From Patescibacteria group bacterium (lineage in GTDB: Bacteria; Patescibacteriota; Patescibacteriia; Patescibacteriales; UBA12465): a DNA stretch of 64,000 nt. Position numbers and translations under genes: made by a program. Of the stretch, positions 5,852-64,000 are shown piece after piece. The notes beneath the pieces were generated by a model. It saw only the letters and a program-made list of their open reading frames with translations. It did not search any database and was not told the origin of the DNA. Position 1 is the first letter of the stretch. Every line of letters starts with the position of its first letter. The DNA is taken from the NCBI GenBank assembly GCA_034002925.1, contig JAVEZP010000003.1, positions 11,712 through 75,711 of the forward strand, read 5' to 3'.

Positions 5852-5872
5852 TTTTCTTTTTTCTTCTTTGCT

Positions 5873-5901: not shown

Positions 5902-5974
5902 GTTGTTTTAATATTAGATAAAAATAGGCAAAATATTTGGCTTTTTTTCATTTTTGCGCTATCTTATTGAGTAT

Positions 5975-34508: not shown

Positions 34509-34516
34509 ATATAATC

Positions 34517-36187
34517 TTGAATTTTATGAATAATGACATATATGCTGGTTCATATCTATATTCTTCAATTATAGATAAAGTTTCAGCAAAACATTTAATA
34601 CCAACGTTACAGCGGCCTTATGTCTGGACGGATAAAAAACAGGTGAAAAAATTTATTGAAGACATTTTAACTAGCAATGATTATTATTTTATTGGTAGTT
34701 TGGTTTTTGTTTTGTCGTCGAACGGGACCGTTGGAAGGGATGAGATTATAGATGGGCAACAGCGGATGATAACCATATCTTTAATTTTGATAGCAATAAG
34801 AGATCTAATTATAAAGCATAAAAAGGAGAAAAAATTAAACGATGCCTTGCGTGAAATTAGTGGTTTTTTAGAATTTGTAGATTCATATGATTTAAAAAAG
34901 AGCCCAAGAATAGAATTTTATGACAAAAGAACAAATAGTTTTTATATAAAATTATTAAAAGGAGAAGCCGGATCTCCTGAAACAGAAACACAAAAAAGAA
35001 TTTTAGATAATTATAATTATATTTATAAAGAGTTAGCTAAAAAGTGTGGCAAAAATATTGATGTAGAGATCACGAGTTTTTTGAACAAGATAAAAACGCT
35101 TAAGGTTATTGCTATAAGTTGTACAAATAATTCAATAGCATATGAATTGTTTGAGAGTATAAACGCTACCGGAATGTCATTGGCTAGCGTTGATTTAATT
35201 AAAAATTTTCTTTTTAAAAATGCATCAAAAGATAAGTCTTTACTATCTAAAGTTGAAACAAATTGGCAAAAATTAGAGGATATATTTTCAGACAATAGAG
35301 CACTTTTCAAAACATTTTTAAGACATCACTGGATAAGCAATGGCTATTATATTAGTCATTCTGGTTTATATTCTGATGTTGAAGTAAAACATAAAGAAAA
35401 AAAAATCACTTCGGTAAGCTATTCTGAGGAATTAGCACATGATGCAGTTACTTATGTGTCGTTGAGGACTGCCAATGCCGAGTCTTTAAGCAAGATACAA
35501 AAATGGAAAAGATTTGATGCAAAATCCGTTAAAGAGGTTCTTGAATTTCTTTCCTTTTTGAGCGTAGATCAGGTTTATGCCCCAATTTTATTTTTTTATA
35601 AAAATGAAAGCAAAGATAAGTTTAAAAAAATGCTTAATAGATTAGCAGCTTTTCAATTTTTGTATAAGTATATTGCAGGAAGCCCAAGTTCTGCGGAGAA
35701 AATATTTGCTGGCTTTGCTAAAAATAACAAGGATGTTAATACACTATTTCAAGAATTGCACAATTTAGTAAAGAACGGTCACGACGAGTTCGTAGAAAAT
35801 TTTTCAAAAAAAAGCATTTACAAAGTATCTAAAAGTGGAGATGTGCAGTTTGTTCTAGAGAGATATGTTTTTTCTAAGGGCGGGGCTCGATCATTCAAAG
35901 AGCCCACTATAGAGCATATAATAAGTCAATGTGATAAAGATGATGATTATGTCCATGAAATTGGTAATCTTACTATTTTTGAACTTAGTGAGAATTCTAA
36001 ATTGCCGACAAAATTTAAAGATAAAATTAGTATTTATAAAAAAAGTCCATATAAAGAGCATCAATTAATTTTAAAATATGATTTTGATAAAAATTATAAA
36101 AAATCTATCAAAAGAAGAACTGAAGATATAGCATCAGATGTTTATGATATTTTTGTTAATATTTTAAAGACCGGTAAAATTATATGA
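34517..36187 (+). CDS. DUF262/DUF1524 (GmrSD-like) putative modification-dependent nuclease
   Basis: N-terminal DUF262 (IPTLQRPYVWTDKKQVKKFIEDI, IIDGQQR). C-terminal DUF1524 His-Me finger-like (TIEHIISQ...IGNLTIFELSENSK). Possible ATG start at 26 nt further in, 34526. Confidence 0.8.
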   Translation: MNFMNNDIYAGSYLYSSIIDKVSAKHLIPTLQRPYVWTDKKQVKKFIEDILTSNDYYFIGSLVFVLSSNGTVGRDEIIDGQQRMITISLILIAIRDLIIKHKKEKKLNDALREISGFLEFVDSYDLKKSPRIEFYDKRTNSFYIKLLKGEAGSPETETQKRILDNYNYIYKELAKKCGKNIDVEITSFLNKIKTLKVIAISCTNNSIAYELFESINATGMSLASVDLIKNFLFKNASKDKSLLSKVETNWQKLEDIFSDNRALFKTFLRHHWISNGYYISHSGLYSDVEVKHKEKKITSVSYSEELAHDAVTYVSLRTANAESLSKIQKWKRFDAKSVKEVLEFLSFLSVDQVYAPILFFYKNESKDKFKKMLNRLAAFQFLYKYIAGSPSSAEKIFAGFAKNNKDVNTLFQELHNLVKNGHDEFVENFSKKSIYKVSKSGDVQFVLERYVFSKGGARSFKEPTIEHIISQCDKDDDYVHEIGNLTIFELSENSKLPTKFKDKISIYKKSPYKEHQLILKYDFDKNYKKSIKRRTEDIASDVYDIFVNILKTGKII

Positions 36188-37101
36188 AATTTCTAAATTT
36201 TTACAAAAAAAAACTAAGTTGTCAAAATGAAGACGAAGTTTTTAATTATTTAATTAATAACTTAAAGCCAAGTATTATTCTTTGGTCTTATTTTGTTAAT
36301 TGGGATAAGGTTTTTAATAATACCAAAAAGATAGAAATAGCTTTAAATAATCTTAATTATTTAATTGGAAAAGAAGATTTTGATAGTGAATTCAGATTTT
36401 TAATTAAGGAAAATCCAGAAATTGCTAAAGTTATTCCTGCGTTGGTTGTGCGTGATGGAAGTAATACTAATAAATTTAATATTTTAGTTGATTATAAAGG
36501 TAAGAAACTAGTTTATGAAGAATACGATTTTTCTAAAAAAGAGATGACAGATGAGGACGTGGAAAAGTATCTTATGTTTGTAAAAGAGTCAGGATTAAAA
36601 GATTTAATTATCTCACAAAAAATCAAAAACCTTGTTGATTATATGATTGGCGTAGAGGCTGGGCTTGATAGTAATGGTAGAAAAAATAGAGGTGGCCATT
36701 CTATGGAGAGTATAATAGAATTTTTTATTAAAGATGTTTGTGAGAGTAAAAAATATAGCTATATTAAAGAAGCAACCTCAGAGAAAATAAATAAAGAATG
36801 GGGCTATGACGTTCCAGTGGACAAGTCTTCTCGCAGATATGATTTTGTTGTTAACACTGGCAAAGAACTTGTTATTTTTGAAACTAATTTTTATGGTGGT
36901 AGTGGCTCTAAGTTAAAGTCAACTGCTGGAGAATATAGAGACCTTTTTAATGTCTTAAAAGGTCAATATAAGTTTATTTGGATTACAGATGGTAATGGCT
37001 GGAAGTCTACAGCCCGGCCCCTTAGGGAAACCTTTAATCACAATGACTATGTGATTAGTTTAGAGATGGTTGAAAAGGGTATTTTAAATGAAATCTTTTA
37101 A
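36184..37101 (+). CDS. DpnII-family type II restriction endonuclease (predicted GATC)
   Basis: NLVDYMIGVEAGLDSNGRKNRGGHSMESI, RYDFVV, ETNFYGGSGSKLKSTAGEY, WITDGNGW and LRETF match the DpnII/MboI family blocks as I recall them. Start overlaps the previous stop (ATGA). Confidence 0.8.
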   Translation: MKFLNFYKKKLSCQNEDEVFNYLINNLKPSIILWSYFVNWDKVFNNTKKIEIALNNLNYLIGKEDFDSEFRFLIKENPEIAKVIPALVVRDGSNTNKFNILVDYKGKKLVYEEYDFSKKEMTDEDVEKYLMFVKESGLKDLIISQKIKNLVDYMIGVEAGLDSNGRKNRGGHSMESIIEFFIKDVCESKKYSYIKEATSEKINKEWGYDVPVDKSSRRYDFVVNTGKELVIFETNFYGGSGSKLKSTAGEYRDLFNVLKGQYKFIWITDGNGWKSTARPLRETFNHNDYVISLEMVEKGILNEIF

Positions 37102-37165
37102 TTAAAGATATAAAAATCATTAAGCTTGTTGAGATGAATTTAAAAACCGTTGATGTGCCACAAGG

Positions 37166-37963
37166 ATGTATAAAGTGTTTTATTATATGAACATTTTTAA
37201 AAAAGAAAAATCATATTCTAAACAAAAGATTAAAATTAATCTTATAAAACAGTGGATTTTTTATATTTTTGCCTTCTTGCTTATTGTTGTTTACCTCTCT
37301 TATTCTATTAATAAATATAGACATTTAGATCGAGATACGCTTAGGGTTTTTGCTTTACTAACATTAGGCTTTCTTTCTGGTATATTGTCTTTGTGGTTTT
37401 TAAAGTTAATTAATAATTTCTTTTCAAAAACTGATACTGAGATAAATAAGGCTAGGAAGGGAAACGAAGGAGAAAAATTAACCTATCTTAATTTAGTTAA
37501 ATTTCTGGGTAATAATTATAAAATTTATAAAAATTTTAAAATACCTAATCGTAAATTTGATATAGATTTTTTAATAGTTGGCCCTAAGGGATTAATAGTG
37601 ATAGAAGTAAAAAATAGTTCAAATTCCTATATTTTTACAGAAAAAGAAGCTAGGAGAATAAAGGGAGAAGGATATTCTAGGAAAACTACTCTTTTGTTTG
37701 GTAATTGCGATCCTCGTGTAAAGCTAATAAATCATTGCAAATCTTTAAATCATTATTTATATTCCTTGGGTTTAGTTGGTTTTAGGATTAAAAAGGCTTT
37801 GTTGTTTATTAATGGGAATATAAGCATTAATGATAAATCCGGTGTATATATTATTAATGGAATAAGCAAATTGCGTGAGTATATAGAAGGACTAAATTAT
37901 GACGATAGATTCACTGCAGAATTTTGTGAGACTGTTAATAGGAGCTTAATTGATAAAATATAA
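37166..37963 (+). CDS. NERD (nuclease-related domain) protein with two N-terminal TM helices
   Basis: GNEGEKLTYLNLVKFLG...KFDIDFLIVGPKGLIVIEVKN fits the NERD core (GxxGE...D-x-hhh...G-hhhhE-x-K). Preceded by two hydrophobic helices. Confidence 0.65.
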   Translation: MYKVFYYMNIFKKEKSYSKQKIKINLIKQWIFYIFAFLLIVVYLSYSINKYRHLDRDTLRVFALLTLGFLSGILSLWFLKLINNFFSKTDTEINKARKGNEGEKLTYLNLVKFLGNNYKIYKNFKIPNRKFDIDFLIVGPKGLIVIEVKNSSNSYIFTEKEARRIKGEGYSRKTTLLFGNCDPRVKLINHCKSLNHYLYSLGLVGFRIKKALLFINGNISINDKSGVYIINGISKLREYIEGLNYDDRFTAEFCETVNRSLIDKI

Positions 37964-42941: not shown

Positions 42942-44855
42942 ATGAAAAAAATTAAAAAATTGTGGTGGCTCTTTTTAATAATCGTGATTGCACTTGCTTT
43001 GTGGTGGTGGTTTGCTAATCGTGATCAAGAAGTCTCCTATTCTACTGTGAATGTGATTCGTGGTCCTTTAGTACAGACTGTATCTGAAAGCGGTACCTTA
43101 AAGCCAGTGCGAGAATTATCTTTAAATTTTCTTAGTTCTGGTCGGGTGCAGTCACTGTCAGTATCGGTTGGTGATAAAGTAACTGCAGGTATGGAATTAG
43201 CTGCTTTAGATAATAGTGCTTTACAGTCTCGTAAATTAGAAGCTGAGGCAGGCTTAAAAATAGCGGAAGCCTCTTTAGATAAATTATTAGCTGGTGCTAG
43301 TGGTGAAAATTTAGCAGTTAGTCGTGCAGCTATTAATCAGGCTCAAGCTAATGTTGATGCTACCATTATAGAACTCGAGAAAATAAAAGCTACTACTGCT
43401 GAAAATTTGAGACAAGCAAAAAAAACTTTAGCAGATTTAGAGTCAGATAGCACTGAGACTGTCACTCCAAGCGAACAAGCCGTTGCCTCTGCTCTCACTA
43501 CTTTAAATAATGCCGAGCAAACTGGAACGGCTAATATTAATAATGCTCGCAGTTCGGCGATAATTAGCATTAATGACAAGATTTTATCGGCTAAAGTTGC
43601 TCTAGATAATATTAATACGATTTTAGAAGACAAAGATGCGGAGGCAGTGTTAAGCGTGAAGAACAGCTCTTTATTATCTAAAACAGAAGATGCTCGTAGC
43701 GCTGCTTTATTGTTAGTGGGGCAAGCTGATGCTTTGGCTAATCAAATGCAAGCAGATGAAAGTAAAATTGTGCCAGCTGCTCAAGCCTTACAATCTTTAT
43801 TACGTCAAGTTAGCACTACTTTAGATTATGCTTATGCCATGTTAGAGGCAACTATTACTAGCGTCAATTTTTCTCAAGCTAATTTAGATGCTTATAAAAA
43901 TTTAGTTAGTAGTCAGTCAAGTCAAATTAACGCTGCTAGTTTAACAATTGAAAGTGCTTCTCAAGCTTATCAAAATGCCGTTTTAAATAAAGAAGTAGCG
44001 GTGGCTAACGCTTATGAAGCTTGGCGTCAAACCGAGGTGGCTTTAGATAATGCAATTTTGGCAGCACGTAATAATGTTAGTAATTTAGAACTTAGTCGTG
44101 ATCAGCAGATAGCAGCGGTAGAGGCACGTTTAGCTTCGGCTGAAAAAGCTTTGTTATCCGCAAAGGCTCAATTTAGTAGCACTGCTGCCCCTGCTAGGGC
44201 TCAAGATATTGCTTTAACTCGGGCTCAGATTAGTCAAGCTCAAGCTGCTTTGGCTGGGGTAGAACAGCAATTAAGTGAAACTGTTTTAACAGCACCGCTT
44301 GATGGTGTAATTACAGAGGTTAACTATGAAATTGGTGAACAATTTGGCCCAGGCACAAAAGCGATGATTGTAATGCTGGTTGATAATAGTTTTAATATTG
44401 AAGTGGATATTGCTGAATCTAATATTAGTAAGATAAAAATTGGTGATGAGGTTGATATTACTTTTGATGCTCTTTCCGATGATTTTGTGATTAAAGGAGT
44501 GGTTAGCTTTATTGAACCAGCACGTACTTTAATTCAAGATGTGGTTTATTATAAAGTTAAAGTTGAATTTGAGAATTTACAAACAGCTTTAGCTCAAATT
44601 GAAGCTGAGAATTTTAAATTAAAAGCAGGTTTAACTAGTAATGTTGTTATCACCACTGATAGCCGTGACAAGGTATTACAAGTACCGGCTCGTACTATTA
44701 TTGAACAAGATGGAGCTAAAATAGCGCGTGTAGTTGAAAATGGAGAAATTGTTGAGAAGATGGTGGTGACTGGTTTGCGAGGTGATGATGGTTTAATTGA
44801 GGTTTTAAGCGGTTTAGAAGAGGGGGATCAAGTGGTAACTTTTATTAGAGATTAA
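42942..44855 (+). CDS. HlyD/MacA-type membrane fusion protein with a greatly extended coiled-coil hairpin
   Basis: N-terminal TM. Split lipoyl halves (GDKVTAGMELAALD / LTAPLDGVITEVNYEIGEQF). Beta-barrel and MP domains at the C-terminus. About 355 Ala/Gln/Ser/Leu-rich helical residues between the lipoyl halves. Confidence 0.8.
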   Translation: MKKIKKLWWLFLIIVIALALWWWFANRDQEVSYSTVNVIRGPLVQTVSESGTLKPVRELSLNFLSSGRVQSLSVSVGDKVTAGMELAALDNSALQSRKLEAEAGLKIAEASLDKLLAGASGENLAVSRAAINQAQANVDATIIELEKIKATTAENLRQAKKTLADLESDSTETVTPSEQAVASALTTLNNAEQTGTANINNARSSAIISINDKILSAKVALDNINTILEDKDAEAVLSVKNSSLLSKTEDARSAALLLVGQADALANQMQADESKIVPAAQALQSLLRQVSTTLDYAYAMLEATITSVNFSQANLDAYKNLVSSQSSQINAASLTIESASQAYQNAVLNKEVAVANAYEAWRQTEVALDNAILAARNNVSNLELSRDQQIAAVEARLASAEKALLSAKAQFSSTAAPARAQDIALTRAQISQAQAALAGVEQQLSETVLTAPLDGVITEVNYEIGEQFGPGTKAMIVMLVDNSFNIEVDIAESNISKIKIGDEVDITFDALSDDFVIKGVVSFIEPARTLIQDVVYYKVKVEFENLQTALAQIEAENFKLKAGLTSNVVITTDSRDKVLQVPARTIIEQDGAKIARVVENGEIVEKMVVTGLRGDDGLIEVLSGLEEGDQVVTFIRD

Positions 44856-44860: not shown

Positions 44861-45583
44861 ATGAAGAAAGCTTTATTGGATTTACAATCTCTAGAAAAAA
44901 CCTATGTGAGTGGGGAATTGGAAACTCAGGTTTTAAAGCAAGTTTCTTTCCAAATTGAAAAGGGTGAATTTGTGGCAATTATGGGACCATCTGGTTCTGG
45001 TAAGTCAACTTTAATGCATATTTTAGGCCTTTTAGAACGAGCTAGTGCTGGTCATTATTATTTTGCTGGTCGTGATGTTTCACTTTTAAATGATGAAGAA
45101 TTAGCTCATTTACGTAATCAAGAAATAGGTTTTGTGTTTCAAGCTTTTAATTTATTAGCTCGAACTAGCGTCTTAGATAATGTAAAATTACCTTTGATTT
45201 ATTCACAAAATAAGAAAAAAATGGATGAAAGAGCTACTAAAGTATTAAAAAGCGTTGGCTTGGGACATCGCTTAGATTATTATACTAATCAAATTTCTGG
45301 TGGTGAAAAACAAAGAGTAGCCATTGCTCGAGCTTTAGTTAATAATCCGGCGGTTATTTTTGCAGATGAGCCAACTGGTAATTTGGATTCTAAATCAGGT
45401 ACGCAAGTGATGAAAATTCTGCAAGATTTAAATGCTGATGGCAAAACAATTATTTTAGTTACTCATGAAACTTTTACAGCCGAACACGCTCAGCGTATTA
45501 TTCGTGTTCACGATGGACAAATTGTAAGTGATGATAAGGTCAAGAAAAGACGGATAGCCGAAGAAGGTGAATTATTGAAGTAA
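44861..45583 (+). CDS. MacB/LolD-type ABC transporter ATP-binding protein
   Basis: [40 protein letters not shown]. Confidence 0.9.
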
Positions 45584-45586: not shown

Positions 45587-46834
45587 ATGTTAGATAATTT
45601 TCGACAATTAATGACTTTAGTCTTCCGGGCTCTTTTTAGTAACAAGACCCGGAGTTTTTTAACAATGTTGGGAATTATTATTGGTGTGGGGGCAGTAATT
45701 TTAATTATGTCTTTAGGGGCGGGAGCACAATCTTTAATTTTAGGTCAATTGGATAGTTTTGGTAGTGATTTAATTGGTATTTTACCAGGGCAATCTGATG
45801 AAAAAGGGCCACCAGCATCTGTATTTGGGGTTAAGGTTACTACTTTAAAATTAAGTGATGCCAATGCTTTGCGTGAAGAAAAAAATATGCCCCATGCCGT
45901 TTCAGTTGCTGCCTATTATGACACCAGTGTTATTTTATCTTGGCAGGACATTAATTATAGTGCTGATTTAAATGGTATTGCTGGTGATTATTTAGCGGTT
46001 GATGGCGGCGAAATAAAAGCGGGACGTTTTTTTACTCAAGATGAATTAGATTCTAGTTTACGTTTAGTGGTTCTTGGTAGTCGTGTAGCTCAAGAGCTTT
46101 TTGGTGATAATAATCCCATAGGACAAAGAATTAAAGTAAAAAATAAGAGTGTTACTGTGATTGGCGTGATGGCGGAAAGGGGCCAAGTAGGTTTTTCTAA
46201 TTATGATGATTTAGTATTATCACCTTTAGCTTTTGTACAAAAAGAAATTGCTGGAGTTGATTATCTTAGTGCTATTAGAATTAAGATTGATGATCCGCGG
46301 AATATTGATGAAAGTATGTTGATGGCCGAGCAGGTTTTAAGGGAGCGCCATGATATTGATAAGATTGGTGATGAAGATTTCTCAGTGCGTAGTTTTCGTG
46401 ATGCGCTCAATTTAGTTACTACTATCACCGATGCTTTGCGTTATTTCTTGGCCGCTATGGCGGCTCTGTCTCTTTTGGTAGGAGGAATTGGAATTATGAA
46501 TATTATGTTAGTGAGTGTGACAGAGAGAACAAGAGAAATTGGTTTACGCAAATCTCTGGGAGCTACTAATAATCAAGTGCTTAATCAATTTTTATTTGAA
46601 GCAATCGCTTTAACCTTAATAGGAGGTGTGATTGGTTTATTATTTGGTGTCTTGTTTGCTTATTTAATTGCTTTAGTAGTGCAGTCTTTGGGTTATAATT
46701 GGGACTTTTCGGTTTCATTATCTTCAGTTTTAATTGCGATTGGCTTATCTATCATGATTGGTGTGATTTTTGGTTATTATCCTGCTAAAAGAGCCAGTCG
46801 TTTAAGTCCGATTGAGGCTTTACGTTATGAATAG
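45587..46834 (+). CDS. MacB/FtsX-type ABC permease, subunit 1
   Basis: TM1, large extracytoplasmic domain, 3 TMs. GGIGIMNIMLVSVTERTREIGLRKSLGA and YYPAKRASRLSPIEALRYE. Confidence 0.85.
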   Translation: MLDNFRQLMTLVFRALFSNKTRSFLTMLGIIIGVGAVILIMSLGAGAQSLILGQLDSFGSDLIGILPGQSDEKGPPASVFGVKVTTLKLSDANALREEKNMPHAVSVAAYYDTSVILSWQDINYSADLNGIAGDYLAVDGGEIKAGRFFTQDELDSSLRLVVLGSRVAQELFGDNNPIGQRIKVKNKSVTVIGVMAERGQVGFSNYDDLVLSPLAFVQKEIAGVDYLSAIRIKIDDPRNIDESMLMAEQVLRERHDIDKIGDEDFSVRSFRDALNLVTTITDALRYFLAAMAALSLLVGGIGIMNIMLVSVTERTREIGLRKSLGATNNQVLNQFLFEAIALTLIGGVIGLLFGVLFAYLIALVVQSLGYNWDFSVSLSSVLIAIGLSIMIGVIFGYYPAKRASRLSPIEALRYE

Positions 46835-48056
46835 TATTATTGTCGCTTTTCAATTAGCTTGGCGCTCTTTACGCCTTAACATCTTACGTACTAGTTTGAC
46901 GGTTTTGGGCGTGGTGATTGGTGTAGCAGCTATTGTAGTGGTGTTCGCCGCTGGTGATGGTATTACTCGTTTAGTTTATGGTGAAATTGAATCATACGGC
47001 ACTAATGTAGTGCAGACTGAAGTGAAAGTTCCAGGAAAAGAGGTAGCGGCGACTGCGGAAATTACGAGTTTAAAATTAGATGACATGGCGGAAATAGATA
47101 AATTGGATAATGTGAGCATGAGTTACGCTGTATCTTTAGGGCAGCAAAAAATTACTTATGGTGGCGAGGGTAAAAAAGTATTACTGTTTGGTGTAAGTGC
47201 GCCTTATGTAGATATTGATAGCAAGACCAAAGTAATTGAAGGTTCTTTTTTTAGCGCCGAAGAAGATGATAGTCAAGCAGCCGTTATTGTTTTAGGTTCG
47301 GCTTTACGTGAATATTTATTTGGAGATAGTGAGGCAGTGGGTAAATTTGTTAGAGTGGGTAGTCAGCGTTTTCGGGTGATTGGCTCTTTAGCGGAGCAGG
47401 GGGGTGGCTTTAGTTTTTTAGATTTTAATGATTCTGCTTATATTCCTATTCAAACTTTGCATAATAAAATTTTAGGCATTGATTATGCTTTATATTTTAT
47501 GCATCAGCTGCGTGATATTGATCGAGCTGAAGAAACGGCCGAAGAGATTAGATTAATTTTAAGAGACCGACATGAGATTAGTGATCCTGAAAAAGATGAT
47601 TTTCGCGTTTCCACTATGACAGAAATGTTAGATACTTTAGGCACGGTAACTAGTGCTGTTACTTTTTTATTATTAGCGATTGTTCTTATCTCTTTATTAG
47701 TTGGTGGGGTAGGTATTATGAATATAATGTATGTCACAGTCACAGAAAGAACGCCAGAAATAGGTTTAAGAAAAGCGATGGGGGCCACCGCTAAAGATGT
47801 GGTGCGGCAGTTTTTAATTGAGTCTTTGCTCATTACTTTCTGGGGCTGGCTCTTAGGGGTGGTGTTAGGATTATTATTTTCCTATCTTTTAACTTTGGTG
47901 GCACAATATTTTCAGATTGATTGGTTTTTTAGTTTGCCGCTTGATGGCATTGTAGTTTCTTTATTATTTTCTTTAGCTTGTGGTTTATTATTCGGCTATC
48001 GCCCTGCTAAACAAGCAGCGCGACTAGATCCGGTCACAGCCTTGCGTACAGAATAG
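46827..48056 (+). CDS. MacB/FtsX-type ABC permease, subunit 2
   Basis: Same architecture: GGVGIMNIMYVTVTERTPEIGLRKAMGA and YRPAKQAARLDPVTALRTE. ATG at 46827 overlaps the previous gene by 8 nt. Confidence 0.85.
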   Translation: MNSIIVAFQLAWRSLRLNILRTSLTVLGVVIGVAAIVVVFAAGDGITRLVYGEIESYGTNVVQTEVKVPGKEVAATAEITSLKLDDMAEIDKLDNVSMSYAVSLGQQKITYGGEGKKVLLFGVSAPYVDIDSKTKVIEGSFFSAEEDDSQAAVIVLGSALREYLFGDSEAVGKFVRVGSQRFRVIGSLAEQGGGFSFLDFNDSAYIPIQTLHNKILGIDYALYFMHQLRDIDRAEETAEEIRLILRDRHEISDPEKDDFRVSTMTEMLDTLGTVTSAVTFLLLAIVLISLLVGGVGIMNIMYVTVTERTPEIGLRKAMGATAKDVVRQFLIESLLITFWGWLLGVVLGLLFSYLLTLVAQYFQIDWFFSLPLDGIVVSLLFSLACGLLFGYRPAKQAARLDPVTALRTE

Positions 48057-48081: not shown

Positions 48082-48105
48082 AGCCGGCAAGTAGCCGGTT
48101 TTTTA
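48082..48105 (+). terminator. Rho-independent terminator of the ABC efflux operon
   Basis: AGCCGGC-aagt-AGCCGGT-type GC stem followed by T6. Confidence 0.55.
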
Positions 48106-48227
48106 GTGGAAGAAATATTAAACTCTTGCGTATTATAACATAGAAGAGCTCTTAAAAACTTCTTATAAACTAATTAATATCAAACTTAATTATACTAGCT
48201 TTAGTAAATTAATTTGAATATATCAAT

Positions 48228-48665
48228 ATGAAGAAAAAAAATTTAGCTATTTTAGGATTAATGAGCTTAGCGGTTTTGGTAATAGTTTTTACCTCAGCTA
48301 ATCAAGCCTCTGCTGATACCACTAATAAGCAACGTGGATATAATTTAAGCATTGAAGATCGAGAAGCTATGCGGTCAGAAAGACAGGCTGAAGCCGAAGC
48401 TAGACGTGCTACCATGGAACAAGTAATGGCTCAAGGTGACTATAATACTTGGGTAGAAACAGTTAAAGCAGAGATGGGCGAAGATGCTCCCATTTTATCC
48501 AAGGTTACGGCTGATAATTTTCAGGAATTTGTTTTAGCTCATCAAGAGATGAGTCAAGCAAGAGAAAAAATGTCTCAATTTATGCCCGGTGAGCGCGGTT
48601 TTGGCAAACATGCTGGTAACAGAGCTAATCGTGGTATGCGCGGTAATTGCCCTTTAGCAGAATAA
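48228..48665 (+). CDS. Secreted hypothetical protein
   Basis: Signal peptide ending ASA|D. Helical, Glu/Arg/Met-rich mature part. No family recognised. Confidence 0.5.
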   Translation: MKKKNLAILGLMSLAVLVIVFTSANQASADTTNKQRGYNLSIEDREAMRSERQAEAEARRATMEQVMAQGDYNTWVETVKAEMGEDAPILSKVTADNFQEFVLAHQEMSQAREKMSQFMPGERGFGKHAGNRANRGMRGNCPLAE

Positions 48666-49932: not shown

Positions 49933-51612
49933 ATGGAGACTAATCTTTTTATTCAATTAAGCTCTTTGCTCGCGATTACAGTCAGCATTGCTTTTATTGT
50001 TCGTTTATTAAAACAACCTTTAATTATTGCCTATATCATTGCTGGTATTATTGGTGGTCCTTTATTTTTAAATATTATGCATGCTGGCGAAAGCATGTAT
50101 GACGCTTTTGCTAGTTTTGGTGTGGTTTTGTTATTGTTTATTGTTGGCTTAGATCTTAATTTTTCTTATTTAAAAAAAATTGGTAAAGAAGCGACTATTA
50201 TTGGCTTGTTGCAGTTTGTGTTAAATTTTAGCATGTTTCTTCCCTTGGCCCTCTATTTTGGTTTAACTTGGGCGAGTGCGATTTTTTTAGCTTTAGCGGC
50301 GTGTTTTTCCAGCACCATTATTGTCTTAAAGATTTTAGGAGATAAGCAGGATACGGAAGCAGTTTATGGTCGTTATACAATTGGTTTAATGTTGGTGCAA
50401 GATATGCTCTCAATTGCAGTTTTATTGTGGTTAAGTTTTAAAATGCCTGACTCAAGCATTGATAATAATTTTTCTCTTTGGCCCTTGTTAAAAATAATAG
50501 GAGTATTTGGGGTGATTATCTTAGCAGCTAAATATTTATTGCCTACTTTTTTAAAAAAAATTGCTTCTTCAGGAGAATTTTTATTTATTTTTACCGTCGC
50601 TTGGTGTTTTGGGGTGGCTAGTTTATTGCATTGGAGCGGCCTCTCTTTAGAGTTAGGAGCAATTGTTGCAGGTATTAGTTTAGGTTCTTCGCGTTTTCAT
50701 ACAGAAATTGCTAGTCGCATCAAGCCTTTGCGAGATTTTTTCTTAGTTTTATTTTTTATCCTTTTGGGCAGCCAAGCGGATTTTAGTAACTTGAAAGAGA
50801 TTCTGCCATCCGCTTTGCTTTTGTCAGTTTTTGTTTTAGTAGCACAACCGATTATTTTATATTTTTTATTCCGTCTTCGTCACTTTACTCGACGTAATAG
50901 TTTTTTAGGAGCTTTAACTTCTGGCCAATTAAGCGAATTTGGTTTTATTATCCTTTTTGCTGGAGCAGTCACGGGTTATATCGCTGATCGAGAAATGGCC
51001 ATTTTTACCTTAGCGGCTATTATCACTATTTTCTTTTCTTCTTACATGATGACTTATAGTTATCAAATTTATAATTGGTTATTGCCTTTATTTACGAAAA
51101 TAGGTCCAGATAAATATTTACAAGCAGAAGACAAAAAAGAAAAATTTACCGCTTTTATCTTTGGCTATCATCGTACTGCTTGGAAAATTGGCGCTGCTTT
51201 ACAGGAAAAGGGTATAGATTATGCGGCGGTAGATTTTAATCCTAGCGCGGTAGAGCATTTTAATAAAAAAGGGATTAAAACTTTTTTTGGTGATGCTTCA
51301 GATATTGAATTTTTAAAGTCCTTACCTTTACAGGAGGCTAAGTATATTATTTCTACTATTCCGTCTCCTGAGGATCAACTGCTCTTGATTAATTTTATTC
51401 GAAAAATTAATCCTAAGGCTATTATGATTGCTAGTTTATATCACAAAAAGTATTTACCGGCCTTATATCAAGCGGGAGCAGATTATGTCATCTTACCTCA
51501 TTTATTAGGAGGCTCTTGGGCGGCAGAAATTGTTCGCAATGGAGAGTTGGGAAGAAAAACTGCTTGGCAAAAATATCGTCGACAGCAGACACGTGATTTA
51601 AATGGTAGTTAA
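49933..51612 (+). CDS. CPA2 cation:proton antiporter with C-terminal RCK/TrkA-N domain
   Basis: Na+/H+ exchanger-type TM domain. C-terminal Rossmann-like FIFGYHRTAWKIGAAL..GIDYAAVDFNP. Confidence 0.8.
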   Translation: METNLFIQLSSLLAITVSIAFIVRLLKQPLIIAYIIAGIIGGPLFLNIMHAGESMYDAFASFGVVLLLFIVGLDLNFSYLKKIGKEATIIGLLQFVLNFSMFLPLALYFGLTWASAIFLALAACFSSTIIVLKILGDKQDTEAVYGRYTIGLMLVQDMLSIAVLLWLSFKMPDSSIDNNFSLWPLLKIIGVFGVIILAAKYLLPTFLKKIASSGEFLFIFTVAWCFGVASLLHWSGLSLELGAIVAGISLGSSRFHTEIASRIKPLRDFFLVLFFILLGSQADFSNLKEILPSALLLSVFVLVAQPIILYFLFRLRHFTRRNSFLGALTSGQLSEFGFIILFAGAVTGYIADREMAIFTLAAIITIFFSSYMMTYSYQIYNWLLPLFTKIGPDKYLQAEDKKEKFTAFIFGYHRTAWKIGAALQEKGIDYAAVDFNPSAVEHFNKKGIKTFFGDASDIEFLKSLPLQEAKYIISTIPSPEDQLLLINFIRKINPKAIMIASLYHKKYLPALYQAGADYVILPHLLGGSWAAEIVRNGELGRKTAWQKYRRQQTRDLNGS

Positions 51613-51616
51613 AAAT

Positions 51617-53128
51617 ATGAAAAAAAACTCTTTATTAACCCTAGCTTTTACTAGACGTTGGCGTTTAATGCAATACGATCATGCTCATCCTTTAGCTGCT
51701 CAAGAAAAAATTTTTAATTATTTGATAAAAGAAGGAGCTAAAACAGCTTGGGGAAAAATTTATAACTATCGTAATATTAAAAATTATGAAGATTATAGGC
51801 AGCGGGTGCCAATTAGCGACTACGAAAGTTTGCGTCCTTATATTGATCAGTTATTGCAGGGGCGGGATTATGTTTTGTGGTCAGAGAAAATAAAGTATTT
51901 TTCTAAGTCATCTGGTACTACGGGTTCTAAGAGTAAATATATTCCTGTGAGTAATGCGGCCTTGAAAGATAATCACTATGCTGGCGGTCGGAGTTTGTTC
52001 GCGTCTTATTTTCATCACTATCCTCAATCTAAAATATTTTTAGGCAGAAATTTTGCTTTAGGTGGAAATCGTCAATACGATCCTATTGGTAGTAGTAAAT
52101 ATATTGCTGATGTTTCAGTGATTTTAATGAAGAATTTGCCTTGGTGGGCTCGTTTGAGACGTAGTCCTCGTTTTAGCGTAGCAGCTATGCCCGAATGGGA
52201 AACTAAATTAAATCGTATTGCGGAAATTATTACTTATCAAAATATTGTTAGCTTATCCGGGGTGCCTTCTTGGAATTTGATTTTAGCAAAAAAGATTTTA
52301 GAAATTAGTGAGAAAAAAAATTTACATCAGGTGTGGCCTAATTTGGAATTATTTATTCACGGAGGCACTAGCTTTGCTCCATATCGTGAGCAGTTTCAAA
52401 AATTAATGCCCAGCTCAATGAATTATTTGGAAGTTTACAATGCCTCTGAAGGATTTTTTGCTTTTCAGGATGATCTATCGCGTTCTGATTTATTGCTTTT
52501 TTTAAACGGTGGTGTTTTTTATGAATTTTTGCCTTTAGAGGAATTAGCTAAAGCTAAACCACGTGCTCTGTCTTTAGAGGAAGTAGAGTTGGATAAAAAT
52601 TATGCTCTTGTTATTTCTACTAATGCTGGTCTGTGGCGTTATTTGATTGGGGATACCGTTCGTTTCACTTCTTTAGCTCCTTTTCGAATTGTTTTAAGTG
52701 GGCGTACTAAATCTTTTATTAATGCCTGTGGCGAAGAGTTGGTAGTGGAAAATGCGGATAAGGCTGTGGCTCAAGCAGCGCAACTAACCGGTGCTTTAGT
52801 GAAAGAATACACAGCCGCTCCTTATTATCATAATAAAACTGCCGCAGCTACTCATCAATGGCTTTTTGAATTTGAAAAAGCGCCTAGTGATAGTCTTCAA
52901 TTTATGCGCTTACTTGATAACGAGCTCAAAAAAAGCAATTCGGATTATGAGGCTAAACGTTATAAAGATTTGAATTTAGCTCCACCATTATTAGTGATAG
53001 CTAAAAAAGATTTATTCTATCATTGGTTAAAAGAGAAAAATCGTTTAGGTGGTCAGGCAAAGATACCAAGATTAAGCAATGATCGTATTTTGATTGATCA
53101 TTTATTGACGATGAATGAGGCCTTATAG
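51617..53128 (+). CDS. GH3 family acyl-adenylate-forming enzyme
   Basis: FSKSSGTTGSKSKYIPV, LEVYNASEG, YLIGDTVRF and EAKRY blocks of GH3 (PF03321). An alternative ATG at 51602 would overlap the antiporter gene. Confidence 0.75.
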   Translation: MKKNSLLTLAFTRRWRLMQYDHAHPLAAQEKIFNYLIKEGAKTAWGKIYNYRNIKNYEDYRQRVPISDYESLRPYIDQLLQGRDYVLWSEKIKYFSKSSGTTGSKSKYIPVSNAALKDNHYAGGRSLFASYFHHYPQSKIFLGRNFALGGNRQYDPIGSSKYIADVSVILMKNLPWWARLRRSPRFSVAAMPEWETKLNRIAEIITYQNIVSLSGVPSWNLILAKKILEISEKKNLHQVWPNLELFIHGGTSFAPYREQFQKLMPSSMNYLEVYNASEGFFAFQDDLSRSDLLLFLNGGVFYEFLPLEELAKAKPRALSLEEVELDKNYALVISTNAGLWRYLIGDTVRFTSLAPFRIVLSGRTKSFINACGEELVVENADKAVAQAAQLTGALVKEYTAAPYYHNKTAAATHQWLFEFEKAPSDSLQFMRLLDNELKKSNSDYEAKRYKDLNLAPPLLVIAKKDLFYHWLKEKNRLGGQAKIPRLSNDRILIDHLLTMNEAL

Positions 53129-56905: not shown

Positions 56906-56935
56906 AACCGCTTAAAAGCGGTTTTTATTTTTTTA
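56906..56935. terminator. Bidirectional terminator
   Basis: AACCGC-ttaaaa-GCGGTT followed by a T-run on + and an A/T-run on -. Lies between convergent DUF1295 and copA. Confidence 0.55.
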
Positions 56936-59171: not shown

Positions 59172-59175
59172 ATTT

Positions 59176-61058: not shown

Positions 61059-61529
61059 ATGAAAAAAATTATTTATAACAAATTAGAGGAACATCGCTTA
61101 GCCGGCTGGTTAGTTTTTAGCGCGATGCGACTGGAGACTTTAGCTGATGAATTTATGTTTAAGCCTCTAGGATTAACATCTGCGACTTTTCGTATTTTAA
61201 TGGCTCTTGATGGTTTGGGTCCTCAGTCTCCGTCTGATCTAATAGCGGCTTTAGGTAGTAGCAAATCTAATTTAACTCAACGCTTACATTGGTTGGAAAA
61301 AAAACAGTTAATTAAAGTGAAGCGTCAAGTTAATAATGACAAAAGAAGAGTGCTGGCTCAGATTACTAAATTAGGCAAACAGCAGGTTGTGGCTACTCGT
61401 CAACTAGTAAAAGATAACAATTTATTAATAGAAAATTATTTTAGCAAAGCAGAGGTTAAAGAATTGATTCGTCTATTTCGTAAACTTAATCATGGGCTAG
61501 ATCAATGCCAGCCAAAGCTTAAAAATTAA
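61059..61529 (+). CDS. MarR family transcriptional regulator
   Basis: wHTH core LGLTSATFRILMAL...PSDLIAALGSSKSNLTQRLHWLEKKQLIKV..NDKRR. Confidence 0.8.
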   Translation: MKKIIYNKLEEHRLAGWLVFSAMRLETLADEFMFKPLGLTSATFRILMALDGLGPQSPSDLIAALGSSKSNLTQRLHWLEKKQLIKVKRQVNNDKRRVLAQITKLGKQQVVATRQLVKDNNLLIENYFSKAEVKELIRLFRKLNHGLDQCQPKLKN

Positions 61530-61534: not shown

Positions 61535-63445
61535 ATGAAACGAAAAACTTTTTTACTTGCTTTTTTGTTGCTGCCAACTTTATTGTTAACTGCTTGTGGC
61601 AGCGAGGAAGAAGTGCAAGAAAGCATAGTAGAGCCAGTGTCAGTGAGTGTACAGAAAGTGGCAGATAGTCGTGAATTGTCCCAACAAGTTTCTTATCCTG
61701 CTATTGTGTCAGCTGATATGGAAGCGAGATTAACTGCTCAATTACCGGGCATTATTGCTGAGGCTAATTTTGCTGTTGGGCAAACCGTGACAGCTGGTCA
61801 AGTTCTAGCTCAGGTGAACGAAATTGGCGCTAATACGACTACTAGTGCTCAGGCGAGTAGTAATCAGATAAAGCAGGCTTTAATTGCTGTGCAACAAGCT
61901 CAGGAATCATTTGAATTAGCTCGTTCTAATTATGAAAATACCACTATTTCTGCGGCTCGAGATCTAGAACAAGCGCGTATTGCTCGTGACCAAGCAGCGA
62001 AGGGTTTAGATAATTTAGGTAGCACTGCCGATGAAAGCATTAAAAGCGCTGAGTTAGCTTATGAAGCTGCGCAATTAGCTAGTGAACAAGCGAAATTAAA
62101 TTTAGAAAATCGTCAAAAACAATTAATTCAAAATGAAAATAATTTAAAAGATAACGCTGATTTAAATATTTCTTCATCTTTAAATGCCATCAGTTCTATT
62201 TTAAGTGGTGTTAATAACTTAACAGGTTTTGATAAAAACAATGTAATTAACATTTCTTATCGTAGTAATTTAGGTGCTTTAGACTCTAGTTCTTATAGTC
62301 GGGCCGAAGATGCTTATCAATTAGCTCAAAATAGTTACAAAGAATATTTAAGTCGTGAGTCACAAAATACAGAGCAAGATTTACGAGATTTGTTAGCTGT
62401 AGTTACTAAGGCACAAGAATTAAGTGATGCTTTGAAATATTTGTTTGACAAAAGTATTCCATCTTCAAATTTACCTCAAAATGGAGGCACTGGTGTATCT
62501 TTAGCTTCTTTGCAGAGTTCAGCAGCTGCTTTTCAAACTCAAGCTAATGGTGTTTTTAGTCAAGTTCAAAACAGTTTACAAGCTTGGCAAAATTTTTCCT
62601 TAGAACGTAGCAGTGCTCTAGACTCTCTTAATCAAGCTTATAATTTAGCCCAAAAGCAAGAAGCGAGTGCGGCTCAAAATTTAAAAAGCTTACAAGCTGG
62701 TAATACTAGTCAGCAAGATCAAGCTTCTTTTTCTTTGGCTTTAGCGGATAATCAATATGAAAATTTAAAAGTTAAATTAGATTCTCAAATTGCAGCTACT
62801 AAAACTCAAATGGATAGTGCTCAACTTCAATACCAGAATGCTTTAGTGAATTTACAAAGTCTCTATGACAGTCGTTCTATTGTTGCTCCTATTGATGCTA
62901 CAGTGTTTCAAAAACTTGTCAGCAATGGAGATACTGTCAGTGCAGGGCAATTAGTGGCTGTAATTGGTAAATCAGATGGTCTTAAATTAAAATTTTTCAT
63001 TGAAGCAGAAAATGTGCCACTATTATCTGTTGGTCAAATTATTCGTGCAGTAGATAGTGACGAAAGAGAATATCAAGGAAAGATTTCTTCGATTGCCGCT
63101 CAAGCAGATTCTATTTCTAAGAGATTTCAGGTAGAGGCCACTTTAGATAATATGGAAAATCCTCCTTTATTAGGCACAGTTGTTAATGTGAAATTATCTT
63201 TAAATAAAGATGCTTTGTTAAGTAATGGTTCAATTTTTTTACCTTTGTCAATATTAGAGATTGGACAAAATGGTAGTTATGTTTTTTTACTGCGTGATGG
63301 CAAAGCTTATAAACAAGAAGTGATGATTGAAAGCGTGATTGGTGAGACAGCAAAATTGAAGTTAGAAGCGAATGATAATGATTTAATTATTACTTCTGGT
63401 AATAAATTTTTAAGTGATGGTCAAGTAGTTAATATCAAGCCTTAA
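61535..63445 (+). CDS. HlyD-type efflux adaptor lipoprotein with a greatly extended coiled-coil hairpin
   Basis: Lipobox LLLTAC. Split lipoyl halves (GQTVTAGQVLAQV / IVAPIDATVFQKLVSNGDTVSAGQ). C-terminal beta-barrel/MP domains. About 345 helical residues in between. Confidence 0.8.
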   Translation: MKRKTFLLAFLLLPTLLLTACGSEEEVQESIVEPVSVSVQKVADSRELSQQVSYPAIVSADMEARLTAQLPGIIAEANFAVGQTVTAGQVLAQVNEIGANTTTSAQASSNQIKQALIAVQQAQESFELARSNYENTTISAARDLEQARIARDQAAKGLDNLGSTADESIKSAELAYEAAQLASEQAKLNLENRQKQLIQNENNLKDNADLNISSSLNAISSILSGVNNLTGFDKNNVINISYRSNLGALDSSSYSRAEDAYQLAQNSYKEYLSRESQNTEQDLRDLLAVVTKAQELSDALKYLFDKSIPSSNLPQNGGTGVSLASLQSSAAAFQTQANGVFSQVQNSLQAWQNFSLERSSALDSLNQAYNLAQKQEASAAQNLKSLQAGNTSQQDQASFSLALADNQYENLKVKLDSQIAATKTQMDSAQLQYQNALVNLQSLYDSRSIVAPIDATVFQKLVSNGDTVSAGQLVAVIGKSDGLKLKFFIEAENVPLLSVGQIIRAVDSDEREYQGKISSIAAQADSISKRFQVEATLDNMENPPLLGTVVNVKLSLNKDALLSNGSIFLPLSILEIGQNGSYVFLLRDGKAYKQEVMIESVIGETAKLKLEANDNDLIITSGNKFLSDGQVVNIKP

Positions 63446-63449: not shown

Positions 63450-64000
63450 ATGTTAAAAATAAATTTACATAAACCAAAAGAGGCAAGTTTGGAGAATGAG
63501 AAGGCTGCTAATATGAGCTCTGATCAGTTATATTTAGAAACTTTAGAATTTAAGCCAGAGTTAAGAAAAAGTTGGTTAAATTTTTTTATTGTTAATTTTC
63601 GAGTAGTTATTTTGTTAATTATTGCTTTAACTGCTTGGGGTTTATATTCTTTTTCTTTGTTGCCACGCGAGTCTAGCCCAGAGGTAAAAATTCCGATAGC
63701 CGTTGTTTTTACGACTTATCCAGGGGCTTCACCAGCCGATGTTGAAGAATTATTAACTAAAAAATTAGAGACTTCTATTTCTGGTATTAAAGACGTGAGC
63801 AAAATTACATCAAATTCTTCTAATTCTTTATCGGCGATCACTGTTGAATTTGATGCTCGAGCTGATTTAGATAGCTCTTTGCGCAAGTTAAGAGATGAAG
63901 TTAGTAATGTAAAATCATCTTTACCCGAAGATGCTAACGATCCAGTTGTAAAAGAAATTTCCTTTGATGATAGTCCAATTATGAATGTGTCATTAGCAGC
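63450..64000 (+). CDS. RND (AcrB/HAE-type) efflux pump, N-terminal part (3' end outside window)
   Basis: Not in the ORF track because no stop falls in the window. My translation gives TM1 (VVILLIIALTAWGLYSF) then LLPRESSPEVKIPIAVVFTTYPGASPADVEELLTKKLE..GIKDVSKITSNS, the RND porter-domain signature. Confidence 0.8.
   Translation, partial: MLKINLHKPKEASLENEKAANMSSDQLYLETLEFKPELRKSWLNFFIVNFRVVILLIIALTAWGLYSFSLLPRESSPEVKIPIAVVFTTYPGASPADVEELLTKKLETSISGIKDVSKITSNSSNSLSAITVEFDARADLDSSLRKLRDEVSNVKSSLPEDANDPVVKEISFDDSPIMNVSLA

Follow-up and report, generated by a model that had tools for sequence, protein, structure and literature searches.

Adaptors, or membrane fusion proteins, are usually explained as links between an inner-membrane pump and TolC. 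Lol systems pass lipoproteins to LolA in outer-membrane bacteria and are not known to include a membrane fusion protein. In the E. coli MacAB-TolC system (PDB 5NIK, 9QGY, 3FPP), MacB is a homodimer with fused nucleotide-binding domain (NBD) and permease, and MacA is the adaptor that docks TolC. The helical hairpin of MacA measures 67 Å, compared with 58 Å in AcrA and 47 Å in MexA, and the longest hairpin in the compared set of solved adaptor structures is that of EmrA, whose helices of 84 and 80 residues span 127 Å and were termed "exceptionally long" (PMC4158417). From the EmrA structure it was also argued that a long path can be sealed by adaptor proteins on their own (PMC4158417).

MacAB-like pumps consisting of an adaptor together with separate ATPase and permease genes occur as Spr0693-0694-0695 in Streptococcus pneumoniae and as YknWXYZ in Bacillus, whose cells have no outer membrane. 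The Spr0693-type adaptor forms a hexameric "nanotube", which was proposed to carry substrate off the membrane into the wall, with a helical barrel 56 Å high and an apex approximately 154 Å above the membrane (PMC5768738). Why cells that lack an outer membrane retain hairpin-bearing adaptors has been posed as an open question (PMC4446572).

A 64,000-nucleotide stretch of the genome of a Patescibacteria group bacterium (hereafter the window) contains an operon that belongs with these systems. Profile and sequence comparisons showed it to encode a four-gene MacAB-like export pump (type VII ABC, "mechanotransmission") of this Patescibacteria (CPR) bacterium, in the order adaptor, ABC ATPase, then two MacB-type permeases (Table 1). 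The adaptor resembles MacA in being anchored by a transmembrane (TM) helix, in having the same four domains and in working with a MacB-type ABC partner. No prior description was found, and a literature search returned nothing specific on long adaptors or envelope dimensions in Patescibacteria.

Table 1. Coordinates of the pump-related features in the window
Feature	Position	Strand	Evidence
Adaptor (membrane fusion protein), 637 aa	42942..44855	+	Pfam HlyD_D23, HlyD_3; TIGR01730
N-terminal transmembrane anchor, approximately residues 7-24, LWWLFLIIVIALALWWWF	42960..43013	+	Translation
Helical module, residues 92-445	43215..44276	+	AlphaFold2 helices, coevolution, mirror-paired deletions
Distal cap, residues 229-311	43626..43874	+	Fragment model, Foldseek, couplings
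ABC ATPase (MacB-NBD/LolD-like), 240 aa	44861..45583	+	ABC_tran E 1.8e-34
Permease 1, 415 aa, MacB_PCD + FtsX	45587..46834	+	Pfam 4.9e-41, 1.3e-25
Permease 2, 409 aa, MacB_PCD + FtsX	46827..48056	+	Pfam 1e-34, 2e-20
Terminator-like hairpin then T-run, 26 nt past permease 2 stop	48082..48108	+	Consensus scan
MarR-family regulator ahead of second pump operon	61059..61529	+	Pfam MarR 4e-9
Second long adaptor, 636 aa, RND-type, lipoprotein-anchored	61535..63445	+	TIGR01730 139 bits; HlyD_3
RND (AcrB-like) transporter N-terminus, truncated by window end	63513..64000	+	ACR_tran E 1.1e-28; RND_permease_2 7e-27

The adaptor reading frame, which may be opened at 42933 or 42942, translates into a protein beginning MKKIKK and comprises the N-terminal anchor, a membrane-proximal domain, a beta-barrel and a lipoyl domain interrupted by a helical module of 354 residues. 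The NCBIfam profile TIGR01730 was matched at 122 bits, above its cutoff of 94.9, and the Pfam families HlyD_D23 and HlyD_3 scored 52 bits (cutoff 30) and 42 bits (cutoff 22), respectively. MacA was the best PDB match by sequence as well as by fold (Foldseek E 1.7e-17), and the Foldseek matches to MacA, EmrA, AcrA and MexA ranged from 1e-17 to 1e-9. The AlphaFold2 model reached a mean pLDDT of 85, with low confidence in the anchor region, as expected for a lone TM helix. Inspection by eye showed that residues 7-24 are hydrophobic and carry no lipobox cysteine, as is also the case in the homologues. Judged by its sequence, the adaptor is a membrane fusion protein of the MacA type that is TM-anchored and not lipid-anchored. 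The hexameric ring of MacA is reported to be held together by the beta-barrel residues E231, Y276 and T293 (PMC8277102); these align with E492, Y537 and T565 of the adaptor, all three of which are invariant in the family alignments.

The N-terminal lipoyl half, with the motif ...GMELAALDN, finishes at approximately residue 91, and the C-terminal half, TVLTAPLDGVITEV, begins at approximately residue 446. A preliminary description of this DNA had placed an insert at 43215-44280 between the two half-motifs. This stretch corresponds to residues 92-446, and the insert is real relative to known adaptors, for the Pfam and NCBIfam matches are confined to its flanks and the alignment of E. coli MacA to the adaptor falls into two segments (query 2-108 and 392-632). 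Residue counts over positions 95-447 (n = 353) gave A 73, L 41, S 37, Q 27, E 25 and N 25, with only 3 Pro and 6 Gly, so that the same description was correct in calling the insert Ala/Gln/Ser/Leu-rich; across the module the bias amounts to 21% A, 12% L and 10% S. The additional term "heptad-like" was only loosely right. A single-sequence heptad Fourier scan was uninformative, and the family-averaged hydrophobicity profile used in its place gave the long helices a weakly significant hydrophobic period of 3.55-3.65, not a strict 3.5.

AlphaFold2 predicted the helices H92-117, H121-167 and H176-228 to pair in antiparallel orientation with H312-415 and H420-445, with pLDDT values of 88-97 across the module and one unbroken helix of 104 residues. 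Coevolution is consistent with this arrangement, as 18 of the 50 top pairs fall in the band i+j = 532-550, where 2.6 would be expected (the windows for some of the coupling tests were picked after the AlphaFold2 secondary structure had been seen). The couplings follow i+j ~540 from the pair 88/450 through the pair 269/279, which amounts to a single antiparallel register along the full module. The module alignment is nearly gapless and its indels are position-specific and paired, with shorter relatives showing equal-sized deletions at mirror positions of the two arms (19+19, 25+25, 18+18, 7+7, 43+36 and 43+43). A rod folded in half, or a tip touching the base, was rejected because couplings of the base with the middle or the tip show no enrichment. 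The 554-aa relatives were considered as forms without the 83-residue tip module, and this was also rejected, since the alignment shows that they keep the tip and are missing paired mid-rod segments.

The AlphaFold2 model, the coevolution and the mirror-paired indels agree in showing the module as an antiparallel two-helix rod with a four-helix cap. Because residues 229-311 fold back as the cap, the rod has approximately 135 residues per arm and a predicted length of about 20 nm (~200 Å); the single plain hairpin of approximately 175 residues per arm and 25 nm put forward in the preliminary description is thus not upheld. Since the helix breaks at 118-120, 168-175 and 416-419 could be hinges, 20 nm is the most that a straight rod would measure. 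With 354 residues and ~200 Å, the module falls outside the range of characterised hairpins (27-127 Å, up to 168 residues; PMC4158417), so the earlier claim of a MacAB-like operon whose very long helical adaptor insert projects far beyond characterised adaptors stands. Relative to the 67 Å hairpin of E. coli MacA, the modelled stalk of this MacA-like adaptor would be roughly three times as long.

The cap is composed of a loop (residues 229-242), a fold-back hairpin (H243-271/H273-302) and a second loop (303-311), packing against the rod end to give a four-helix bundle. Its fragment model had a pLDDT of 94.7 and a pTM of 0.84. The best Foldseek match was the ligand-binding domain of McpS (TM 0.52, rmsd 6.3 Å over 205 columns), followed by other helical bundles, namely maquettes and a pectin methylesterase inhibitor, and parallel H1-H3 couplings made up 9 of the 12 top pairs in the cap block (p = 3e-6). 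The fold-back geometry is based on these Foldseek neighbours, the pTM and the coevolution, with approximately 172 effective sequences. Conservation of the distal loops is at or above the module average, whereas conservation is lowest in the fold-back hairpin, with the minimum of the module in its turn (residues 268-280; 0.33 versus a mean of 0.49). Counting against a duct, a closed 12-helix barrel might not readily accommodate one four-helix cap per protomer, or might be plugged by the caps. MacA, unlike the Patescibacteria adaptor, has no distal four-helix cap.

Two further adaptors resemble parts of this architecture. EmrA of Aquifex aeolicus likewise consists of two antiparallel helices in a long coiled coil, whose heptads are broken near the middle (PMC4158417), but its module has 168 residues and 127 Å against 354 residues and ~200 Å here. 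EmrA also differs from the adaptor described here in having an MFS pump partner, no membrane-proximal domain, TolC docking and no fold-back cap. In E. coli CusB the helical domain of the adaptor folds back into a helical bundle (PMC4446572, PMC4158417); there, however, the entire domain is collapsed to a bundle of 27 Å, whereas in the present adaptor the fold-back is limited to the distal 83 residues, atop a rod of about 20 nm.

The transport components of the operon are separate proteins, in contrast to the fused MacB homodimer of E. coli. In the NCBIfam search the ATPase gave matches to the NBD portion of MacB (4e-80) and to LolD (2e-73); its identity among related loci is 65-84%, and permease 1 matched the permease part of MacB at 4e-78. 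The two permeases are paralogues with 37% identity, each carrying MacB_PCD and FtsX domains, and their genes overlap by 8 nt, given the ATG at 46827 as start; two separate MacB/FtsX permeases had been reported in the preliminary description and are confirmed here. An orthologue of permease 1 is found in nearly all related loci, and permease 2 stays a distinct orthologue beside it down to 35% adaptor identity. The heterodimeric pump proposed earlier fits the retention of two different permeases as an orthologous pair in nearly all of these loci. The terminator-like hairpin and T-run behind permease 2, a pattern match from the consensus scan, likely mark the end of the operon.

A single ATPase gene with two paralogous MacB/FtsX-type permeases is also the composition of LolCDE, whose stoichiometry is heterodimeric. 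Unlike LolC and LolE, the permeases described here stay far below the thresholds of the corresponding models (at most 39 bits, cutoffs 439-540) and match MacB much better; their scores of 220-270 bits against the MacB equivalog model are far under its cutoff of 966. Against TIGR02212 they scored 52 and 65 bits (cutoff 362). Spr0693-0694-0695 and YknWXYZ possess one permease gene compared with two here, and the YknW-type fourth subunit is absent from this operon; a fifth conserved gene for such a YknW-like four-TM accessory subunit was not found in or beside the operon among 80 related loci.

Among the matches listed, more than 120 adaptor homologues (49-100% identity, 623-651 aa) align nearly without gaps, and the adaptor is therefore a real conserved gene and not a chance ORF. 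The lipoyl halves of the ABC-type adaptors are separated by 361 or 363 aa, as counted from alignments of 121 sequences. ABC-type adaptors of other lineages are short (508-563 aa) or long (about 640-677 aa). The operon order is retained in nearly all of the 80 loci, and relatives occur in at least 261 species-level genomes, of which all informatively named ones are Patescibacteria. The adaptor family also has weak precomputed matches to YknX-type Pfam entries. A conserved substrate or partner gene beside the operon was sought in the 80 related loci and none was found; the upstream genes for a DEAD helicase, a hydrolase and YgjP and the downstream gene for a 145-aa protein are present only in the closest relatives.

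The window contains a second pump operon, of the RND type, with its own long adaptor. The signal peptide of this protein ends LLTAC, its helical module covers approximately residues 95-449, and the HlyD_3 match starts from residue 449. The helical modules of the two adaptors are nearly equal in length (355 residues in the RND type versus 361 in the ABC type) at approximately 20% identity between the proteins. Profile-profile comparison (probability 99.8%, E 8e-28) matched the two adaptor families from end to end, distal loops included, and the span between the lipoyl halves is 351-357 aa in 119 RND-type homologues. No RND-type adaptor or MarR gene was found near the ABC-type operon within the 7-kb flanks of the 80 related loci. 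The near-equal length of the module on the adaptor of a functionally unrelated RND pump is the main reason to suggest that stalk length is set by the cell envelope and tuned to its width; it would also lend indirect support to the wide envelope suggested in the preliminary description. The equal lengths could also stem partly from shared ancestry of the module rather than from envelope constraint.

In cryo-TEM, likely CPR cells have a surface layer but lack an outer membrane (PMC7906910). Going by this literature on CPR cells in general, the present bacterium would probably have no outer membrane either, which may place its pump, whose gene content fits, beside Spr0693-0694-0695 and YknWXYZ. 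Among the scanned window ORFs of at least 150 aa, no match to the outer-membrane-factor family was detected at E <= 1e-5, four ORFs at 48.7-53.1 kb being judged from precomputed hits. Whereas MacA docks TolC, the hairpin turn here is variable and no TolC-like gene is present in the scanned window ORFs; the combination of a conserved TolC-docking hairpin tip with an encoded outer-membrane factor was accordingly not seen.

Based on these observations, we lean modestly towards a reading of the locus as a four-gene MacAB-like pump with heterodimeric permeases and a hexameric TolC-free duct of envelope-tuned length. As in LolCDE, the two permeases would dimerise with each other and bind two ATPase copies, and the adaptor would assemble on their ectodomains as a hexameric ring like that of MacA or Spr0693. 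From homology and the three conserved residues we infer the hexamer and the duct; the six adaptor rods would form a long duct or stalk extending approximately 30 nm from the membrane. Substrates would enter from the membrane's outer face, be driven up the duct by ATP-powered movements of the permease ectodomains, and pass through the wall zone as far as the outer surface layer or beyond it with no TolC-like partner, the stalk length being matched to the envelope width. By analogy, the candidate substrates include antimicrobial peptides, toxins, envelope lipids and glycolipids. A broader proposal, which we regard as possible but rather doubtful, is that the lineage uses TolC-free, adaptor-only trans-envelope ducts in which a shared rod and cap module serves both ABC and RND pumps, its length acting as a membrane-to-surface-layer ruler that changes between lineages in paired steps of ~7, 18 or 25 residues, and its conserved distal loops docking the surface layer or possibly a host envelope.

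The stalk might instead be a strut, ruler or signal transmitter and not a conduit, working as a rigid spacer to hold or sense the surface layer or wall at a constant distance, or relaying ATP-driven permease movements to a distal partner in the manner of FtsEX acting through the coiled coils of EnvC/PcsB. MacB/FtsX-type transporters are described as mechanotransmitting, and some of them as regulating extracytoplasmic partners via coiled coils (PMC6355983, PMC5768738). The near-constant length of both adaptor families, held within a few residues and changed in discrete paired steps, and the distal loops that are conserved at least to the module average above a fold-back hairpin of lowest conservation also speak for such a role. 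However, the adaptor keeps the full MacA domain set and the ring-forming residues, and the same module is found on the adaptor of an RND pump, a class of transporters and not of regulators. Moreover, Pfam searches and the related loci revealed no hydrolase or other effector domain on the adaptor and no such gene conserved nearby. We consider this explanation unlikely.

It is more improbable still that the stalk projects past the envelope of its own cell and contacts a host or partner, with molecules delivered or taken up by the pump in episymbiosis. Many CPR bacteria are episymbionts attached to hosts (PMC7906910), and an inferred reach of approximately 30 nm would be large for a cell that lacks an outer membrane. 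Contrarily, the known MacB- and RND-type pumps export only. Variability is highest at the distal hairpin turn, an adhesin-like or membrane-inserting element is absent, and no pilus or attachment genes are linked to the pumps in the window or in the 80 related loci. Finally, low-complexity disorder or a compact multi-helix bundle of ordinary height, to which the biased composition, several conserved helix breaks, the short bundle formed by the CusB hairpin (PMC4446572) and the folding back of the distal 83 residues here might point, is largely refuted and very improbable given the high module pLDDT and the 104-residue helix, the one antiparallel register over the full length with no excess of base versus middle/tip coupling, and the near-gapless alignment with its position-specific paired indels.

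The Patescibacteria adaptor represents an extreme and well-conserved case, with a long helical module that occurs on two pump classes in one genome. If its length tracks envelope width, a trans-envelope duct would be possible without an outer-membrane factor, and adaptor length may offer a sequence-based estimate of envelope size for uncultivated Patescibacteria.

The efflux operon of the first adaptor consists of four co-directional genes whose gaps are tiny or negative in the ORF listing of the window (G+C about 35%). The adaptor belongs to the HlyD_D23/HlyD_3 (Pfam) and TIGR01730 (NCBIfam) families, scoring 122 bits against a cutoff of 94.9 with the latter, and an ENA metagenome contig carries an identical protein. 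The two separate, overlapping MacB/FtsX permeases announced in a preliminary description are indeed present; they share 37% identity over their full length, and with the NCBIfam models the MacB permease part scores far better than LolC/E. Across the 80 retrieved loci, almost every one with sufficient flanking sequence keeps the gene order adaptor-ATPase-permease 1-permease 2. The two permeases stay distinct orthologues in related loci, down to 35% adaptor identity, which argues that both are needed. By analogy, the pair fits a LolCDE-like arrangement and may act as a heterodimer.

Features of the window, with domain assignments
Feature	Position	Strand	Remarks
EamA-riboflavin kinase protein	24334-25614		426 aa; EamA transporter domain (168-302) and riboflavin kinase domain (309-425), an unusual fusion
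Low-GC island	33642-37963		GC 0.27-0.31 vs ~0.35; N6/N4 DNA methylase, GmrSD-type endonuclease, DpnII endonuclease, NERD-domain protein
First adaptor	42942-44855	+	637 aa from MKKIKK; ORF lister start TTG at 42933
ABC ATPase	44861-45583	+	MacB-NBD/LolD-like (Pfam, NCBIfam)
Permease 1	45587-46834	+	MacB_PCD and FtsX domains (Pfam)
Permease 2	46827-48056	+	MacB_PCD and FtsX domains (Pfam)
Terminator-like hairpin and T-run	48082-48108		3' of permease 2
145-aa protein	48228-48665		signal peptide, charged helical-looking body, no Pfam match
GH3-family protein	51602-53128		acyl-acid amido synthetase-like; Na+/H+ and Na+/Ca2+ exchanger genes adjoin
Copper/heavy-metal P-type ATPase and neighbour	56925-60603	-	ATPase with HMA domain adjoins HMA + DsbD_2 transmembrane + cupredoxin-like protein
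MarR regulator	61059-61529	+	
Second adaptor	61535-63445	+	636 aa; lipoprotein signal peptide ending LLTAC; TIGR01730, 139 bits
RND (AcrB-like) pump, N-terminus	from 63513	+	cut by window end at 64000

The low-GC island is probably a horizontally acquired restriction-modification and defence island. The gene of the 145-aa protein, just 3' of the pump operon, is conserved in the closest relatives only (e.g. L004-L012 and L016); the protein may serve as substrate or chaperone, or have nothing to do with the pump. Its weak relative in the related locus L056 (703-1083) lies upstream of a second pump operon. Region 2377-6099 of the same locus, immediately 5' of the four-gene operon, encodes a further divergent long adaptor (26% identity, aligned to query residues 17-632) and, after it, an ATPase and only one MacB-type permease, so long-stalk adaptors also accompany one-permease pumps. 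In some distant relatives, a homologous, acidic ORF of about 90 aa without signal peptide is located between adaptor and ATPase (L057 9109-9390, L048 3633-3905); it is absent from the window.

Escherichia coli MacA matches the first adaptor in two pieces (query 2-108 and 392-632). The stretch singled out earlier at 43215-44280 corresponds to residues 92-446, the interval separating the two lipoyl half-motifs, and the residue count agrees with its description as Ala/Gln/Ser/Leu-rich (A 21%, L 12%, S 10%, Q 8%, with very little Pro or Gly). Of 291 homologues found, the 120 listed share 49-100% identity and measure 623-651 aa, and the insert is almost gapless in a 37-sequence alignment; the adaptor gene is therefore not a chance ORF.

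AlphaFold2 run on this 37-sequence family alignment returned a mean pLDDT of 85, rising to 88-97 within the insert, and placed helices at 92-117, 121-167, 176-228, 243-271, 273-302, 312-415 and 420-445. The 104-residue helix 312-415 lies opposite 121-167 and 176-228, and helix 92-117 opposite 420-445. This rod geometry was tested in three independent ways. First, mean-field direct-coupling analysis (DCA) of 287 family members (about 172 effective sequences) put 18 of the 50 top pairs on i+j = 532-550, with 2.6 expected; the coupled pairs range from 88/450, close to the lipoyl domain, up to 269/279 in the turn, with the same register in every rod block. Second, shorter relatives lack equal-sized segments at mirror positions of both arms, as in P0133 (19+19 residues), P0131 (25+25), P0140 (7+8 and 18+18), the 554-aa class (43+36), P0149 (7+7 and 50+43) and P0254 (43+43), while in a 674-aa relative it is insertions that come in pairs. 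Paired indels of this kind are an established way in which adaptor hairpins grow or shrink (PMC4446572). Third, DCA gave no coupling excess between the rod base and its middle or tip, arguing against folding in half. In the family alignment A3 (residues 96-443 of the first adaptor), arm deletions measure 7, 18/19, 25, 36 and 43 residues, lengths that can be composed by adding 7s and 11s. Alongside the module's hydrophobic period of 3.55-3.65, this hints at helices built on an 18-residue (five-turn) repeat instead of canonical heptads.

At its tip the module departs from a plain extension of the rod. A fragment model of residues 170-370 (pLDDT 94.7, pTM 0.84) has helical bundles, not long two-helix hairpins, as best structural neighbours: the McpS helical bimodular domain (TM 0.52, rmsd 6.3 Å over 205 columns), four-helix maquettes, pectin methylesterase inhibitor and talin R4. 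Between helices 176-228 and 273-302, 9 of the 12 top DCA pairs fall on a parallel register (j-i = 69-76, p = 3e-6), and between 176-228 and 243-271, 6 of 10 fall on an antiparallel fold-back register (p = 0.005). These couplings are impossible in a fully extended hairpin, so residues 229-311 make up a distal cap, in which loop 229-242, hairpin 243-302 and loop 303-311 pack on the rod end in a four-helix bundle. The cap is kept in all length classes, one doubtful sequence excepted. Conservation within the module is lowest in the fold-back hairpin of the cap (0.33-0.42); the two distal loops, with 0.51 and 0.56, match or exceed the module average of 0.49.

In solved adaptor structures, hairpins span 67 Å in MacA, 58 Å in AcrA, 47 Å in MexA, 52 Å in ZneB and 27 Å in CusB, and the helices of EmrA (84 and 80 residues, 127 Å) were termed exceptionally long (PMC4158417). 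By the EmrA-type ratio, the 134-137 residues per arm give a rod of about 200 Å, provided that it stays straight across the short breaks at 118-120, 168-175 and 416-419. The very long insert of the preliminary description stands; its 25 nm, for which 175 residues per arm had been assumed, is about a quarter too long. In the Spr0693-0694-0695 model, the apex is 154 Å above the membrane and the helical barrel 56 Å high (PMC5768738); exchanging that barrel for a 200 Å rod would, by analogy, bring the cap to a height of roughly 30 nm above the membrane.

The MarR regulator, the second adaptor and the truncated RND pump make up a second pump operon. The second adaptor, 100% identical to an NCBI protein labelled 'Patescibacteria group bacterium', carries a helical module of 355 residues versus 361 in the first at equivalent boundaries. 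Its 120 listed homologues are 508-665 aa long, 118 of them 627-665 aa. The lipoyl halves are 351-357 residues apart in 119 aligned full-length RND-type sequences and 361 or 363 in 121 ABC-type ones, and profile-profile comparison found the families homologous over their full length, distal loops included (probability 99.8%, E 8e-28, 20% identity). Contigs of equal length appear in the two homologue lists, which suggests that several of them carry both adaptor types. Two pump classes with different energy sources and membrane anchors hence bear one common stalk module with lengths within 2%, which is interpreted as evidence of a geometric constraint from outside, in the simplest case envelope width; common descent of the module could account for part of the agreement in length. 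An RND pump and adaptor in a lineage reported without outer membrane is unusual in itself.

With the C-terminal 190 residues as sole query (E < 1e-30), 184 cluster representatives were obtained. In the best 150, sequences that look full-length measure 508-677 aa; in most, the C-terminal lipoyl half lies near residue 450, and one 523-aa class belongs to Buchananbacteria. A species-representative genome scan found 261 genomes with a relative, of which all informatively named ones are Patescibacteria, Falkowbacteria, Parcubacteria or Paceibacterota. Among the operon-bearing MAG records (loci L002-L081), many have 'uncultured Gammaproteobacteria bacterium' in the title and one has 'Spirochaetaceae', and a single protein bears the label 'Bacillota'. 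Such names seem to be placeholders of bulk MAG submissions or wrong assignments and do not speak for an occurrence of the family outside Patescibacteria.

Fold comparison showed that the first adaptor retains the MacA domain set. Three beta-barrel residues that reportedly hold the hexamer ring of MacA closed, E231, Y276 and T293 (PMC8277102), have invariant equivalents in the alignments (E492, Y537 and T565). Cryo-TEM of likely CPR cells revealed a surface layer and no outer membrane (PMC7906910), and no window ORF scanned matched an outer-membrane-factor family. In the most likely picture, an adaptor hexamer ring would sit on a heterodimeric MacB-type transporter, its rods forming an approximately 20 nm long duct or stalk that would carry substrate from the membrane's outer face through the wall zone, taking the role played by TolC in bacteria with an outer membrane. 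The 'nanotube' proposal for Spr0693 is essentially the same idea, of which the present stalk would be a version scaled up about threefold (PMC5768738). That the stalk instead serves as a strut, ruler or mechanotransmitter without transport appears rather unlikely, and that it reaches a host cell quite improbable. A compact or disordered insert, which the preliminary description had named as the outcome contrary to its reading, is scarcely credible and largely excluded by the pLDDT values, coevolution, paired indels and lack of base-tip coupling.

Both adaptor families are named 'efflux RND transporter periplasmic adaptor subunit' in databases, and their family membership is already known from routine annotation. 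The literature searched contained no description of the extreme, conserved stalk length, the fold-back cap, the module on both ABC and RND pumps of Patescibacteria or the paired-indel length classes. The long-stalk adaptors are of interest for efflux-pump work and CPR cell biology, and are directly testable.
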